A stretch of 64,000 nucleotides of DNA from an uncultured delta proteobacterium (GTDB taxonomy: Bacteria > Desulfobacterota > Desulfuromonadia > Desulfuromonadales > BM103), in the NCBI GenBank assembly GCA_963715335.1, contig CAVQRZ010000001.1, forward strand, positions 32,001-96,000, written 5' to 3'. The position numbers are program-made. This document shows, in pieces, positions 21,001 through 27,000 of this stretch; position 1 is the stretch's first letter, and every line of letters starts with the position of its first letter.

Positions 21001-24000
21001 TTGACCCATGACTCCATCGGCCTGGGCGAAGATGGCCCGACCCACCAGCCGATCGAACAGCTGCCGAACCTGCGGGCCGTGCCCAACCTGACCGTGATCC
21101 GCCCCTGTGATGCCAATGAAACGGTCGAAGCATGGAAGGCCGCGATCGCCAACCGCCAGGGCCCGACCGCGCTGATCCTGACCCGCCAGGCGCTGCCAAC
21201 CCTCGACCGCAAGCAGTATGCGGCCGCGCAGGAGCTGCACAAGGGCGGTTATGTCCTCGCCAGGGAACAGGGCGACCTGCAGCGCCATCATTCTCGCCAG
21301 TGGTTCGGAAATCCCCCTGGCGCTTGGCGCCCGCGAGCAACTGGAACAACAGGGCGTCGGTACCCGGGTCGTTTCCCTGCCCTGCTGGGAGCTCTTCGAG
21401 CAGCAGGACCAGGCCTACCGTGACCAGGTCCTGCCTCCCGCATGTCTGAACCGTGTCGCCGTCGAAACCGCCTCGCCCTTCGGCTGGGAACGTTACGTCG
21501 GCCTCAACGGCAAGACCATCGGCATGCGGGGTTACGGCGCCAGCGGCCCGGCCGGGCAACTCATGGAGAAGTTCGGCTTTACCGTCGATAACGTTGTTCG
21601 CACCGTAAAATCCTGTAAGAGATTATTTAACGCCCGTTCGCTTTGCTCCTTTGCATTATATTCATTGAAAGAGGGACACTCAATTTTGGGTGTCCGTTTT
21701 CCTAGTATCCAGAAGCCAGAAGCCGGCATCCAGAATGTTTATGCAAGCCAAAGAACAGAGACATTCTGAATTCTGAATTCTGAATACTGAATTCCAATCT
21801 CTCGTCTGTCCTGTATGTAAACCCTTCACCAGACCATACGTCTAAACCGCAAAGACACCCGGCAACACGACAAGGGGAAACACGTGTCCACAGCCACGGC
21901 AGCGATCGTTGACAGCTTACACGAGAGCAGCTACTCTCAAAAAATGACTGCCGCAGAGGAACAGGTCTTGCTGGAGAGAATCCGTACCGGTGACGACTCC
22001 GGCTTCGAGCAGCTGGTCAGGGAGCACACCGGCAAAGTCATCGGCCTCGCCTGGCGCCTGATCGGCAACCGGGAAGAAGCTGAAGACCTGGCCCAGGAAG
22101 CTTTTCTGCGGCTGCACCGTTCCCTGCCGGACTTCCGCGGCGACAGCCGCGTCAGCACCTGGCTGTACCGCACCACGACCCGCCTGGCAATCGATCATCT
22201 GCGCCGGGAGCGCATCCGGCGCAAGCTGTTTTTCTTTCGTCAGAACAACGATGCGCCCGACCCGGTGGAACTGGCCGGCGACACCCGGCTCGACCCGGGT
22301 CGGGAATTCCAGTCGCGGGAGGCGATGCGCCTGCTGCGCAAGAGCCTGGGCAAGCTGTCGCCACGTCAGCAGGTCATTTTCACCCTGCGCCACTACGAGG
22401 GCTTGCCATTGAAGGAAATTGCCGAACACCTGGGATTGGAGACCGGCACGGTGAAAGCGCACCTGCATCGCGCCGTCACGCAACTCCGCCAGGATCTGGC
22501 AGATTATCGCGAGGTATGATCATGAACAGCAAAGAGTGCCTGACCGAACAGGAACTGACCCTGCATTTTTACGGTGAGCCGGACACCAGCGGCTCCCGGC
22601 ATCTTGCCGGCTGCCAGCGCTGCGCAAAACGTCTGGCAGCGTTGACCGCCGAGCTGGCGGCTCTGCCCAGACCCGGACTGCACCCCCGACGCCCTGGCCG
22701 GGGTGCGCATGGCGGCAAGGGTCAAGGAAAAGTTGGCGACTCGCCAGCAGCGCAAGGGCTGGTTGCCGGCTCTTGGCGTCGGCGCCGTAGCGGTCCTGGC
22801 CCTGACCATAACCTTCGCCCGGGATCCGCAGCCTGAGCCGGTCCAGGTGACCCTGGCATCGCCAGCAGCGGCAACCTCGATGAACCTGGAAGAGGATATG
22901 CCGGACATCGACTTTCTCGAAGATATCGAGCTGCTGCAGGAACTTGAGCTGCTCGCCCAGATAGAAGGAGTCTGACATGTTCAGCAAGAGATTGACCTTT
23001 TTCATTGGCTGTCTGCTGGTTTTGGCCAGCGTCGTCACGACACCTGCGTACGCCAAGAAGAATGGCGGCCAGTCCGGCGGTGGTGGTTATTCCAGCGGTG
23101 GTGGTTATTCCAGTGGAGGTGGCGGCCACTCCGGCGGCTCCGGTCCTTCCGGCAACGGCAACCTGCAGCAATGGTGGCAGGAGCTGCCGGACAACGAGCG
23201 CCAGATGCTGCGCGACCGCTACGAGATTTTCCAGGGGCTTCCCGATGACCAGCAGGACCGCCTGCGCCAGCGCTGGCAGAATTACCGGGAGTTGCCGCCG
23301 GAAGAGCGGCAGGAGATGCGGGAAAAATACAACCACTGGCGGGAGATGGACCCGGAAGAGCGCGAGCGCATGCGCGGCACTTTTCGCAAGTTCAAGAGTC
23401 TGCCCGAGGGTCAGCGCCAGCAGTTGCGACGGGAGCTCCACGAGCTGCGCGACCTGCCGCCCAAGGAGCAGGAGCGCCGCCGTGAAGAGCTGCATCGCAA
23501 GTATTTTCCGGACGATTGCGCAAAAACGCAAAAGTATAAAGAAAGTTAAAAATAAAGATTCTGATATACAAAGTGTTCTCTTTGCACTTCCTCCCACCCT
23601 TTGCACCTTGGCGTTAAATCTTGCCATTTAGGTACAAAAAAGCGCCGGATCGCTCCGGCCCTCAGGCTGCTGACGAGGTTCAGACAGACTGCATGATAGA
23701 GAGAGCAACAGATGGTTTATCTGTTGCCCTCATCCTTTATTCTTAAGAGCAAAACCGGCGGGTCGCGTCCCGCCCGACGCCATACTTTTGTCCGGCAACA
23801 AAAGTATGCAAAAGTGCCTTCTCCTTGCGGAGGGCATCTCCTCTGCCGGATGTCTGTGACTTCAAAAACCTCTATGATGGGGATCCGGCCCTGTGTCAAA
23901 GGGCCTGACCTTTCCGTGTGATTTACCAGGGAAAAGCCAAAACAACCTCTACCGACGCAAGTCTCCACAGCAGGAGAGGCTCTCAAGAGCCTCGGCTCCT

Positions 24001-27000
24001 GCGGGGGAAGCGTAGGCTTTTGATCGTTTAGAACGCTCCGGATTGAGGTCGCCGCCATTCCGAGCCAGACATGCCCAGCGCAGCGCCAAGTTTTCTTTTG
24101 CTTCCTTTCTTTGTCGCTACAAAGAAAATGAAGTTGCTGTCGGGCAACCCCGACGGTTTATGTTTGTCTTTGAATTCCAAAGTCCAATGGAAAAGGGCAA
24201 CAGTTGGTTAATCTGTTGCCCTAAACTTCATAGAAACGCTACCCGCCAGGCAAAAAAACAAAACCCGCATCACGTGCGGGTTTTATCAACAATCAAAGGG
24301 CCGGATCGCTCCGGCCCAGACTTTTCACTTTTACCTCTTTTCACACCCATCAATTCAATTCATAGGTAACAATCGCCGACCTGGCATCATCAATCAGCCC
24401 CTTGTGCTTGAACTTGACCGCCATCACCAGCTCCGGGCTGCCGTCATTGTCAGCATCGGCGACGACGAAGTCACCGAGGTAGCCGGACTGACTGGCGGTT
24501 CGCCAGTTTTCCTGCAGGACGAAACCGTTCCAGCCGAAAGCGACCAGCCGGCTCTTCTTGAACATGCGGAAGCGTTGCACCATACGCTGGCCGTCGTTCT
24601 GGCCGACCAGGATCTCGCCGTTCGGCATTAAGACCATCTGCTGCGGCATGCAAAGCGGCGGCAGCATTTCATCCGTCAGCGGGGGCCTCGGCATGAAGCA
24701 GGTCTCCGAGCCACCGAAGTATTCGGCGGACTCCCAGAGTTCGACGCCTGCAGCAGAGACTACCTTGAGATAGTCGCCATTGGTCAGGTAAGCAAAAAGC
24801 AGTTGATTGTTGTCATCGACGAAAGGCTGGAAGTTGAAGACATTGAGTTTTCTTGGCAAGGGCACGACGTCACCTTCCAGCAGCTTGCCACCGTCACGGA
24901 TGACATGAAAGACATCGCCGAAAAATGGTTGCTCGGCATTGTCCTTTCTCTGCCCCAACAACGATGGCTTTGCCTGTCCCGGGAAGGCAACCACCCGCAA
25001 CAGCCAGCGGACGTTGCTGATGACGATTTCGTAGCTGTCACCGACCATCTCGACGACCAGTGAGGATGCCTGATATTCGTCCAGAGCAGACAGGTAGAGT
25101 TCGGCGCGGCCATTGCCGTCAAGATCGAGGGCGTCGATGCCCAGAACCTGCAGCCGGATCGGGATCGGCACTTCAGCCAACTCGATAAACTCCCCGTCAA
25201 CGATGCGCGCAATAACGATCTTGTTGTCCAGAATCACGGCCGTTTCCTGGTTGCCGTCACCGTCAAGGTCGGCCACGGTCACGCCGCTCGGGCTGCCGGC
25301 GAGATTCGGCCCCATCCAGATCCCCTGGCGGTCGGCCTGGCGCTGGCGGATGATCGCTTCGTCCATTTCGGCAAAACGATCCTCGGTGGTCTGGCCAAAC
25401 ACTCCCATGACCGTGTTGGCCACCTGCTGCAGCAGCTTAGGTTGCGGTTTCAACGGGCCGGCCATGGCCGGTCGCGATGCCGACTGAGTGGAGGTTACGA
25501 GTTGCTGGTCTTTGGTCACAATATACTTGTGCAGAGAGTTGTTCTGTTGGTCTTTGACGTCAAGAGATTCGCCCTGCAAGGTGAAGGTCAGCAGCGCACG
25601 ATCGCTCTCGCCCTCGGTCAGCCACTCGAACTGGGGCAGGTTGACCTTGAGCTCGCGAACCAGCCCACTGTAACTCCCGCTTGTATCGACAATCAGCGCT
25701 GGAACCTGTTCGAAGCGCTTGATCGATGCGCCGTTGTCCGGCTGCAGACCTTCGGTCAGCACCCTGGCGTAGGTGTAGCCGGAATAGATGCGGGTGACCT
25801 GTAAAAAACCGACCACGTTGTCGACCGAGCCGATCACTTCCTTGGTCACCGGGTGGAGAATCTTCTTGCCGGGTGTGACCAGGGTCAGGATATCGCCGAT
25901 GGCAAGACCATCTCGAGCGTCGAGGTCGATGATGTACTCGTCGTTGATCGGCATGACCACCACGCCCTCGACCAAGGCAAAGTCACTGGCGATGTCATCT
26001 GGCAGTTCGGCCAGGGCGGTTAGTGGCCAGCATACAAGTGTAAGAAAAATCAGTTTGAGAAGGTATTTCATTACTGTCCCATCAATAAATAGATTGGAAT
26101 AATAGCAGTGCGAATCGAGCGGCTATATTATCGATTTTACGATTAAATTGAAAGGCTTAAACACGACTTTACTGCAGATTCCGGACTTTTCCACGGCCTC
26201 CTGAGTTGTCGCAAATCAGAATGCTCCGGCAAGTGCCGTCGACCAGCCTGCAAGGCAATCAAGCGGTTCGCGTCCTTGCCGATCCCAACCCCCCGAGACA
26301 ACACAAAAAACCTCTGCGGGAGCAAAAACAATGGGCCCTAAGACGACCGTTTTTTGTATTTTAATCGTCACGCAAACACCCGGTCGGCCACGAGCCACTC
26401 GACGGCGCACTGGCTACCCGCATCAATCGGGTTGCGCCATCGACCGGGGCCGGTTTATTACCTGTCCAACGGCAGTTCGAAGAAGGAGGTTACGCTGTCT
26501 TCGCCCTGGACCGCTCCGGAGTAGCCGAAGGAGATGCCTGCAGTTCCGGCGGGCACCTGGTAAGATTTTGAGAAACGCTGGATATCTTCCGTGCCGCTGG
26601 TCCAGGCTTTGACAAAGTTAACCGTTTCCAGTACCCGCGAATCCTGATCGAGGAAGAAGAGATATGTACGCATTCTTGAAACAGCTGAATAGAGCATTTG
26701 GTAATGCTGGCTCAAGGCGGCCTGTCCGGAGAGTTCGAGGGTGTCGCCGTTACGCTGGTAAGTATAGTCGATCACAAGGTCGAAGGTCTCCCACGTCCCC
26801 GCAACAGGGGTCCCCGCCTGCAAAGCCACGACAGGTGCGGAGGTAACGCTTTTGCCGTGGTACAGCATGGCCGTCTCTACACATCCCGCAGAAAGAGGCA
26901 GCAGACAAACAAGCAGCAGGCAGGCAAGCTTTGCTTCAACTGACATAGTTTTTCTCCTTTCACACAGGTCGTTGAAGATCATTATATCACTGCACGAGAA

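Follow-up and report, generated by a model that had tools for sequence, protein, structure and literature searches.

A probable foldback transposable element at a terminator hairpin and its predicted pseudoknotted module in Desulfuromonadales

Bacterial MITEs (Correia/NEMIS, ERIC, RUP and Nezha, and Chunjie of Geobacter uraniireducens) are non-coding, carry terminal inverted repeats, duplicate their target, and occur as many intergenic copies with stable predicted folds and with empty sites in relatives. Chunjie is A+T-rich with 21-bp repeats and 9-bp duplications (PMC3184786). The element analysed here shares these general MITE features. It occupies positions 23662-24297 of the window (the whole 64,000-nucleotide stretch of contig C1 under analysis) and is a non-coding foldback element of 0.64 kb without genes, its terminal inverted repeat CTCAGGCTGCTGACAAAG being matched by the reverse complement of the right end, CTCAGATTGTTGACAAAC, as expected of a MITE. 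The element differs from MITEs, however, in duplicating a whole terminator hairpin (approximately 18-25 bp, depending on the hairpin) rather than a fixed short target, in its arms of approximately 190 nt, and in that its best-conserved part is not the tips but an internal structured module shared across the order. It also differs in that no partner IS was found: outside the element loci the terminal repeat gave only chance-like hits in its own draft assembly, and no inverted pairs at IS-like spacing were seen in five relatives, all drafts. A multi-copy IS could simply be unassembled in a draft assembly. We consider it highly probable that the window element is a foldback-type, non-autonomous transposable element that entered the bidirectional terminator hairpin lying between two convergent genes and duplicated this hairpin in full.

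REPs are simple palindromes of 20-40 nt. Like the element, REP/BIME and REPIN-RAYT systems consist of hairpin-based intergenic repeats at gene ends, with mosaic modules and inverted doublets, and they persist vertically for long periods without a linked gene at each copy. The inverted doublet characteristic of REPIN-RAYT is found here as a convergent inverted module pair in 45 of the 95 loci in this genome. In contrast to REPs, the module is approximately 95 nt long with a predicted pseudoknot, and the element is bounded by terminal inverted repeats and duplicates its target. A RAYT gene is flanked by the same repeat that it accompanies; this genome has two Y1_Tnp genes (L051, L052), and L051 is flanked by a different repeat, the unit of which is 55 nt long.

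CRISPR spacer integration and casposons rely on Cas1 integrases that make a staggered attack on the borders of an often palindromic repeat, so that the whole repeat is duplicated. The likeness to the element lies in this whole-repeat duplication, whereas the element's target is any terminator hairpin rather than a fixed repeat. Unusually long target duplications are also shared with the IS1202 family, which has direct repeats of 27-28, 15-17 or 5-6 bp, one subgroup that inserts next to a palindromic site, and ends starting with TGT (Siguier et al., bioRxiv 10.1101/2022.12.17.520857). The element's ends start instead with YTCAG-GCTGCTGAC (read YTCAGGCTG...), unlike those of this family. Duplication length is fixed within an IS1202 subgroup, whereas that of the element appears to follow the hairpin.

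Copies and layout of the element

A blastn search with window positions 23650-24319 gave 154 HSPs in the genome of origin. An nhmmer search with a 10-copy profile gave 272 matches on both strands that resolved into 95 loci covering 42,567 bp of the 3.3-Mb genome, compared to the 87 loci and 36 kb of the preliminary description; 53 of the matches were long copies that included both modules. The element has 15-18-nt terminal inverted repeats, imperfect inverted arms of approximately 190 nt and a 220-nt centre, and each arm consists of an outer segment, a hairpin (H), a spacer and a module. The inverted arms were evident in opposite-strand profile matches linking model positions 2-188 with 417-646. 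The left outer segment was defined from 12 aligned long copies together with the profile consensus, and 36 left-boundary termini were listed.

In the window, the left copy of the duplicated target is a terminator-like hairpin, GCGCCGGA-TCGC-TCCGGCCC (23642-23661), preceded by an A-tract. It is followed by the left outer segment (23662-23702, plus strand) whose terminal inverted repeat reads TCAGGCTGCTGACGAGG (CTCAGGCTGCTGACAAAG in the family consensus), and by the left hairpin H (23703-23729), which has an 11-bp stem, a GGTTT loop and a predicted RNA fold of -17.1 kcal/mol (z -5.5). Module A (23748-23843, plus strand; covariance model score 111.9 bits; fold -37 kcal/mol, z -3.4) contains hairpin 1 (23757-23774), pseudoknot stem 1 (23781-23791 with 23798-23808), pseudoknot stem 2 (GGCA at 23794-23797 with TGCC at 23815-23818) and hairpin 3 (within 23815-23836). 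Centre B (23844-24064), delimited by the conservation profile and consensus, includes two patches, at model positions 241-260 and 321-340, in which the copies are 0.99 identical; an inverted repeat able to form a hairpin lies in each. Module A' (24065-24163, minus strand) is an inverted and diverged second module copy, recognised by the covariance model (26.1 bits, E 2e-4) and by its fold, and here it is a rarer variant, with the pseudoknot pairing AGCG/CGCU assigned by eye. The right hairpin H (24195-24221) has a GGTTA loop in direct orientation, unlike most of the long copies aligned, in which the left and right loops are reverse complements of each other. The right outer segment (24222-24297, plus strand) carries the right terminal inverted repeat ATCAACAATCAAA(G) and holds a terminator-like hairpin with A- and T-runs at its sides (24260-24284; fold -15.2 kcal/mol, z -5.9). 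The right copy of the target hairpin, GGGCCGGA-TCGC-TCCGGCCC (24298-24317), precedes the T-rich tract left from the original terminator. The window holds two further loci, a second long copy on the minus strand (4916-5551; contig C1 36916-37551) with modules at 5310-5405 (minus) and 4989-5087 (plus), and a rearranged mosaic (43433-44181; contig C1 75433-76181) with modules at 43646-43741 (minus) and 43786-43884 (plus).

Hairpin H, of which 109 copies with three or fewer mismatches occur genome-wide, had been taken to bound the element at both ends. It is instead subterminal and lies inside the arms, as full-length copies reach their terminal inverted repeats 41 nt beyond it at one end and 74 nt beyond it at the other. 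The interval 23650-24319 used earlier also takes in both copies of the duplicated target hairpin. Capture of the composite in this genus alone, as first proposed, does not hold, since hairpin-module-centre-module-hairpin units occur at approximately 70% identity in other genera of the family. Module-spacer-inverted-module units are present in other families too, and in distant families the ends of the composite are formed by the module itself. The module had also been said to occur alone, which is only partly right in view of the convergent pairs in this genome and of inverted pairs 200-300 nt apart in distant families. Orthologous copies in two species have inverted interiors, and thus the arms do recombine.

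Insertion sites and target duplications

A target-site duplication, not sought in the preliminary description, was found as 18 identical nucleotides at both flanks of the window copy (23644-23661 and 24300-24317). The orthologous site is empty in four relatives, each with a single terminator-like hairpin: three (G007, G008 and G009) carry one copy of the window's target hairpin, and the fourth (G004) a different one. The hairpin was duplicated at all four loci for which an unoccupied relative was available (the window copy, L112, L113 and L115), and across these four loci the duplication of approximately 18-25 bp, with borders ambiguous by a few nucleotides, tracks the size of the hairpin. This dependence on hairpin size suggests two strand attacks, one at each foot of the hairpin. 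The MITE-like mobility proposed earlier is now supported by the terminal inverted repeats and target duplications together with the sites that are unoccupied in relatives. Among 18 two-ended copies, the left and right flanks of eight resembled each other more closely than did 95% of mismatched pairings, and flanks at 45 of 71 termini folded at -10 kcal/mol or better, compared to 12 of 71 controls 80 nt further out.

The reported site bias was reproduced on the larger set of 95 loci, with 42 convergent, 40 tandem and 8 divergent sites and 5 at contig ends, compared to 552 convergent, 1852 tandem and 559 divergent genome-wide, all counted from crude ORF calls. Of the 90 classifiable loci, 82 face a gene 3' end on at least one side. 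Insertion at terminator hairpins accounts for this bias toward gene 3' ends. The tips are the least conserved part of the element (0.65-0.71 identical among the 53 long copies), and so most copies are probably old and immobile.

Fold and distribution of the module

The module of approximately 95 nt is predicted to fold into two hairpins with an H-type pseudoknot between them, the third loop of which is A-rich. Compensatory (double) changes were found in 23 of the 25 stem pairs. In an alignment fitted to the covariance model, 93.7% of paired cells were complementary compared to 44-54% with the partners slid, and the covariation score was 0.301 compared to at most 0.06 for slid partners. At least four contiguous complementary bases for the pseudoknot were present in 72 of 84 distinct sequences, with a mean complementary length of 4.27 (3.34 ± 0.09 when permuted), and at least eight different pairings occur (GGCA/TGCC, GGCG/CGCC, AGCCA/TGGCT, AAGCCG/CGGCTT, GGCCC/GGGCC, GGTCC/GGACC, AAGCTG/CAGCTT and CCAAAGCC/GGCTTTGG). 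Judged from sequence covariation, loop bases are predicted to pair with bases 3' of the hairpin, as in an H-type pseudoknot. The module also has invariant unpaired bases. The compensatory pairs and the covarying pseudoknot bear out the earlier proposal that the module is a structured element under selection.

As previously described, the module is the best-conserved part of the element, with a mean pairwise identity of 0.963 compared to 0.65-0.87 elsewhere in the 53 long copies, and the edges of conservation are sharp at its borders. In an orthologous pair between this genome and G009, 20-nt windows of the module were 90-100% identical while the flanking genes were 86% and 92.5% identical, although this is a single pair and gene conversion among copies could mimic selection. 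Purifying selection very likely acts on the module, both across the order and in resident copies.

With the covariance model, the module was detected in 137 of 151 genomes of the order that were at least 90% complete (51 of 55 genera) and in 0 of 150 genomes sampled across the rest of the phylum, while blastn detected it in 146 of 233 genomes (51 of 71 genera) of the order, in agreement with the order-wide spread first reported. Two metagenome-bin titles outside the order carry it, and among the genomes searched its sequence appears close to order-limited. By blastn, the module is 80-90% identical between families whose other intergenic DNA fails to align. A search of Rfam 15 with the window gave no match to the module at E up to 10, and eight distant copies searched at E up to 1 gave one chance-level match (22.8 bits, compared to a gathering score of 45); its absence from Rfam stands in that no family match reached the gathering score. 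No linked gene recurs near the module, and a factor binding it did not emerge from the analysis. The preliminary description had cautioned that the module might already be listed in supplementary material, and rightly so, as 'multicopy nucleotide sequences' of Pelobacter carbinolicus (Pcar_R10##) include a 230-nt, 28-member family (Aklujkar et al., 2012, PMC3543383, Additional files 1 and 2) containing it without interpretation. By eye, the 3' approximately 75 nt of this unit form an A'-type module, with hairpin 1, an AT-rich stem and a loop complementary to downstream bases, whereas the rest of the unit is unlike the window element. The family is often in tandem arrays inside gene clusters, and it was only catalogued, the main text giving no structure, function or distribution (PMC3543383).

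Possible role of the module

A foldback transposable element combined with a module that acts as RNA is our best explanation overall, and we give it an even chance. Insertion would part the terminator stem of the upstream gene from the corresponding T-tract, so that transcripts would run into the element and, given the inverted arms, a transcript from either side would meet a sense-oriented module. There the module would act as a protein-bound or nuclease-resistant 3' structure with which the mRNA end of the flanking gene stays functional, and this preservation of the mRNA end would account both for the tolerance of copies at gene ends and for the conservation of every resident module. A putative specific partner, itself conserved in the order, is implied by the bases that are unpaired yet invariant. 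That the module works mainly as RNA in this way is a tentative reading, somewhat short of even odds. Three observations point weakly to RNA. Contigs from four RNA libraries of three studies cover the element, and their summed depth peaks on module A (22, 2842, 1638 and 181, compared to at most 27 for the flanking gene), although these contigs are summed over many copies and organisms, DNA carry-over is possible and oligo-dT was used for two of the libraries. In hairpin 3, the inner stem has 27 G.T cells compared to 8 A.C, an excess suggesting that the strand that folds is the module's own. In one distant genome, the module begins 5 nt past a stop codon, in sense. However, G.T is as rare as A.C in hairpin 1 (4 compared to 7 of 497 cells) and in pseudoknot stem 1 (4 compared to 7 of 924 cells), which is more like DNA or a need for pairing on both strands. 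The terminator-like hairpin of the right outer segment, read on the minus strand, is followed by a long T-run and should stop right-side transcripts before module A'. The random orientation of the element at tandem sites (14 vs 12) also speaks against an RNA role.

The preliminary description is confirmed, and it is extended by the new findings of insertion at a terminator hairpin and of a covarying pseudoknot in the module. More speculative, and on balance doubtful, is the proposal of a shape-picking transposition that attacks the feet of an extruded terminator hairpin, combined with a largely order-limited pseudoknotted docking motif for a putative conserved Desulfuromonadales protein. If true, the entire hairpin would be duplicated whatever its length and both neighbouring genes would keep a terminator stem. 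The repeats would then be a domesticated repeat-and-factor system comparable to REPIN-RAYT though mechanistically distinct, and the module would represent a novel type of pseudoknotted nucleic-acid motif, for the most part confined to the order.

The module could alternatively be a single-stranded DNA signal, a folded end recognised by an unlinked chromosomal recombinase or transposase as REP/REPIN hairpins are by RAYT, with order-wide conservation reflecting long co-inheritance with the enzyme and no RNA function. Inverted module pairs in the arms of a mobile element would place the same fold at each end on opposite strands, and the composite ends in distant families are formed by the module. 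Pairing in hairpin 1 and pseudoknot stem 1 is almost exclusively Watson-Crick (8 G.T of 1421 cells), orientation relative to genes is random, no recurring gene is linked to it, and its largely order-limited distribution looks vertical. We nevertheless regard this signal as unlikely, though the strongest of the alternatives. No candidate enzyme was found, no match to the element profile lies near either of the genome's two Y1 (RAYT-like) transposase genes, and the repeat flanking L051 is a different one. HUH-type enzymes make no target duplication, whereas the element has both duplications and terminal inverted repeats, and a signal serving mobility only should not be kept at 96% in resident copies whose cleaved tips are at 65-70%.

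An independent non-coding RNA gene family or self-cleaving ribozyme riding on the repeats, acting in trans or processing the transcripts in which it lies, would fit the compact pseudoknotted fold with its invariant unpaired bases, the high summed RNA-library depth over the module and its absence from Rfam. It is improbable, as the module lacks an associated promoter or terminator, one genome holds 145 module hits, the RNA-library data consist of contigs without read ends, and there is no similarity to Rfam ribozyme families. Slightly less probable still, and disfavoured, is that the repeats are functionless, the conservation of the module coming from gene conversion and recent bursts and its hairpins being incidental palindromes. 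High copy number and the recombining arms, with orthologous interiors inverted between two species, are in keeping with this. Against it stand the compensatory changes in the stem pairs and pseudoknot across families, the 80-90% identity that the module retains between families with otherwise unalignable intergenic DNA, and the coincidence of the module borders with sharp edges of conservation.

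Copies and architecture of the element

The element, a non-coding foldback repeat of 0.64 kb at window positions 23662-24297, is one of many in its own genome (43 contigs, 3.30 Mb). A blastn search with window positions 23650-24319 resulted in 154 HSPs, and a profile of 648 positions built from 10 long copies gave 272 matches over both strands, 53 of which spanned both folded modules (A and the inverted A'); after merging, these represented 95 loci and 42,567 bp. Hairpin H, found in the window at 23703-23729 and 24195-24221, was detected in 109 genomic copies with at most 3 mismatches. 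The family reported in the preliminary description as a mosaic of about 80 hairpin-bounded intergenic copies is real and greatly exceeds chance. Its repeat copies, its hairpin and its order-wide module were all recovered here, and its reading of a structured module inside a MITE-like mosaic was largely right. To this we add terminal repeats, empty sites, a hairpin-sized duplication, a pseudoknot, a sharp taxonomic boundary and evidence for selection on resident copies.

Alignment of 12 long copies together with their flanks showed that similarity runs past hairpins H as far as CTCAGGCTGCTGACAAAG at the left end and GTCAACAATCTGAG at the right end, which are mutually reverse-complementary; for the family as a whole the terminal repeats are written CTCAGGCTGCTGAC...GTCAACAATCTGAG. 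From left to right the element consists of an outer segment, hairpin H, a spacer, module A, centre B, the inverted A', a second spacer, the second hairpin H and a second outer segment. Opposite-strand profile matches linked model positions 2-188 with 417-646, indicating that the element is a long, imperfect palindrome whose arms measure ~190 nt. An additional terminator-like hairpin (24260-24284; fold z -5.9) lies in the right outer segment, and in some copies the type of outer segment on a given side was swapped. Across the 95 loci the modules formed a convergent pair at 45, a divergent pair at 8, a single module at 20, no module at 16 and a more complex pattern at 6.

In most aligned long copies the right loop of hairpin H was the reverse complement of the left (TAACC or GAACC), and across the genome GGTTA/GGTTC loops are balanced by TAACC/GAACC loops, which agrees with this. 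On this ground we rejected a nested insertion that would have duplicated hairpin H as its target. The right hairpin in the window (24195-24221) carries GGTTA in the same orientation as the left loop, which looks like a loop flip. Copies were also found at contig ends (C10:1-484, C14:1-138, C29:102206-102384, C31:67315-67525), and the family probably breaks the assembly. The near-duplicate contig pairs C15/C28 and C6/C13 carry variant copies, which suggests a strain mixture. No match to the element was found in plasmid and phage collections.

Conservation differed markedly between the parts of the 53 long copies. Mean pairwise identity was 0.963 for module A, 0.916 for A', 0.869 for centre B (two patches at 0.99), 0.82-0.84 for hairpin H, 0.69-0.73 for the spacers and 0.65-0.71 for the outer segments with their tips. 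At one orthologous pair shared with G009, a relative of the same genus, and collinear over 2.3 kb, 20-nt windows of module A were 90-100% identical, compared to 86% and 92.5% for the flanking genes and down to 35-55% for parts of B. The low identity of the tips suggests that most copies are old and probably immobile, with their modules nonetheless kept.

Insertion at terminator hairpins

An 18-mer, GCCGGATCGCTCCGGCCC, lies directly outside both ends of the element in the window (23644-23661 and 24300-24317). The orthologous gene pair was located in four relatives, three of the same genus (G008, G007, G009) and one of a neighbouring genus (G004). The three congeners have a site without the element and with a single copy of the window's hairpin, which in G008 is flanked by an A-run on one side and a T-rich tract on the other, as in a bidirectional intrinsic terminator; G004 has one different hairpin at the same position. 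The comparison was repeated at four further two-ended copies. At three of these (L112, L113, L115) the relative's empty site had a single hairpin and the occupied site had this same hairpin at either end of the element. The duplications measured ~24-25, 22-25 and 18-20 bp, respectively, give or take a few bases, since the tips (TTC...GAA) resemble terminator flanks. At the fourth (L114) the sole matching relative was also occupied. The loops of the two flanking hairpin copies often differ, and this was rejected as an argument against a simple duplication since the loops of empty sites also vary between species, which indicates ordinary drift of terminator loops.

In 8 of 18 two-ended copies, the similarity between the flanks exceeded the 95th percentile of mismatched pairings. 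Flanks of termini folded at -10 kcal/mol or better in 45 of 71 cases; controls did so in 12 of 71 cases and random 34-mers in 12.8%. The loci lay between convergent genes at 42, tandem genes at 40 and divergent genes at 8 sites, with 5 at contig ends, compared to 552, 1852 and 559 convergent, tandem and divergent intervals genome-wide; these counts come from a crude ORF caller with the elements masked, which assigned the gene to the left of the element to the wrong strand. Synonymous-type differences from the relatives place that gene (end 23549) on the plus strand, so that it converges with the right gene (end 24350, minus strand). The bias towards gene ends in the preliminary description is explained by the element targeting terminator hairpins. 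The frame of the left gene (23520-23549) extends 10 codons beyond the stop in G008 (…RKYFPDD*), and this differing C-terminus adjoins the insertion site.

That the length of the duplication tracks hairpin size suggests that transposition would cut at both feet of the hairpin. Duplications of this kind are uncommon and would point to a structure-guided choice of target that spares host terminators. The long duplication is reminiscent of those of the IS1202 family and of Cas1-type integration, and the closest kinds of element are MITEs and REP/REPIN systems. At two orthologous occupied loci (L112 compared to L118, L113 compared to L123) the interior of the element was inverted relative to G009 with collinear flanks, reflecting either recombination between the arms or independent insertions in opposite orientation at the same hairpin.

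Fold and distribution of the module

The stems of the module were evaluated on 103 copies (84 distinct) from genomes outside the own genus, in an alignment fitted to the model. They were paired in 93.7% of cells compared to 44-54% with slid partners, 23 of 25 stem pairs had changes on both sides, and the covariation score was 0.301, where slid partners reached no more than 0.06 and shuffles 0.081. In addition, the 3' part of the AT-rich hairpin loop is complementary to the bases after the A-rich linker, and the two sides of this pseudoknot covary (GGCA/TGCC, GGCG/CGCC, AGCCA/TGGCT, AAGCCG/CGGCTT, GGCCC/GGGCC, GGTCC/GGACC, AAGCTG/CAGCTT, CCAAAGCC/GGCTTTGG). At least 4 contiguous complementary bases were found in 72 of 84 copies, with a mean of 4.27 compared to 3.34 +/- 0.09 in 200 permutations, and by eye an additional base pair in the pseudoknot stem was accompanied by an additional base in the linker. 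Where TGCC changed to TGGC the loop compensated and the 3' GGCA of hairpin 3 did not, which makes the outer part of the third hairpin doubtful and the pseudoknot the better model. Several unpaired positions barely vary between copies (CG in loop 1, GACGCC, the A-run and GCA), which points to a putative specific partner of the module.

Among the members of the order Desulfuromonadales are Geobacter and Desulfuromonas, genera of interest in work on metal reduction and bioelectrochemistry. With a 101-nt query for the module, blastn matched 146 of 233 genomes of the order, representing 51 of 71 genera. A covariance model with three stems, aligned from 58 copies of many genomes, detected it in 137 of the 151 genomes at least 90% complete and in 51 of 55 genera (scoring at most 27 hits per genome), and in 0 of 150 genomes sampled across the rest of the phylum, 4 of these in the same class. 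The own genome has 145 matches, and tens of copies per genome were found. An exact 21-mer, searched in one genome per species, matched at least 109 stretches; among the 80 matches listed, nearly all were from Desulfuromonadales, Geobacteraceae, Desulfuromonadaceae or unnamed delta-proteobacterial bins, and the named genera included Desulfuromonas, Trichloromonas, Geothermobacter and Pelovirga. The full module was also present in bins titled Alphaproteobacteria (L134, 597-kb contig; 87.7 bits) and Chloroflexota (L137, 3-kb contig; 80.3 bits); incorrect labels, incorrect binning or horizontal transfer may account for this. The module had no match in Rfam 15, and a covarying, pseudoknotted module found within the phylum only in this order is therefore absent from that collection. 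A motif at so many gene ends may be relevant to mRNA ends and to the expression of operons, besides hampering annotation and assembly.

'Multicopy nucleotide sequences' are mentioned in three Geobacter and Pelobacter genome papers. The Pcar_R1001-R1028 family of P. carbinolicus (PMC3543383, Additional file 2) ends, by eye, with an A'-type module; this was the only family of either type catalogued there, with no A-type motifs found in the supplement. Additional file 1 gives only the genes neighbouring the Pcar_R10## copies and the main text nothing further. The genomic setting of this family is unlike that of the element: 16 of its 28 copies lie within ~55 kb (347-402 kb), and several are tandem arrays with a ~308-nt period inside clusters such as the nif and menaquinone genes. 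Short motifs had no match in the text of 13 of the 19 supplementary files of G. metallireducens (PMC2700814); the module may still be listed in these supplements or in those of G. bemidjiensis. Searches of the literature for Geobacter MITEs, REPs or small RNAs yielded only Chunjie and reviews.

Mode of action and candidate partners

We tentatively favour a module that acts as RNA, at a little under even chances. Contigs of four RNA libraries from three studies covered the element, with summed depth greatest over A, second greatest over A' and low over the unique flanks; this depth sums contigs over many copies and organisms and indicates presence in RNA libraries only, and the uncovered parts of the window are uninformative. 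The inner stem of hairpin 3 had 27 G.T compared to 8 A.C cells, which was counted for RNA. Hairpin 1 and pseudoknot stem 1 together had only 8 G.T in 1421 cells, which fits single-stranded DNA or pairing on both strands, and the outcome of this discriminator was therefore mixed. Action as single-stranded DNA appears the less probable of the two, and is also favoured by the right outer terminator, which should stop transcripts entering from the right side, and by the orientation of long copies at tandem sites (14 compared to 12), by itself an uninformative count. Solo modules at tandem sites were 3 sense and 2 antisense (n = 5). The remaining probability falls to other readings. Clustering of ORFs of at least 120 aa beside 69 module loci of other genomes gave no cluster in more than 2 genomes, and this lack of a recurring neighbour is neutral between RNA and DNA. 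The sharp taxonomic boundary of the module enables a phylogenetic-profile search for a partner protein.

Searches by terminal repeat in the own genome and five relatives found no partner IS and no enzyme for the element. In the own genome a 15-mer of each terminal repeat (at most 2 mismatches) had only chance-like matches outside the element loci; in the relatives an 18-mer (at most 3 mismatches), a pattern blind to right-type ends, had 11-50 matches per genome with no inverted pairs at 1-3 kb. A link to RAYT-like Y1 transposases was rejected, as the gene inspected carries its own repeat. This gene (L051:1240-1884, minus strand, 214 aa) is surrounded by 55-nt repeats (L051:438-492, 1194-1248, 1957-2011 and 2874-2928) built on the palindrome GGGGACACTCAAAA...TTTTGAGTGTCCCC, and a second Y1-transposase gene is located at C9:68347-68679. 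The 55-nt repeat forms another REP-like family of this genome, distinct from that of the element.
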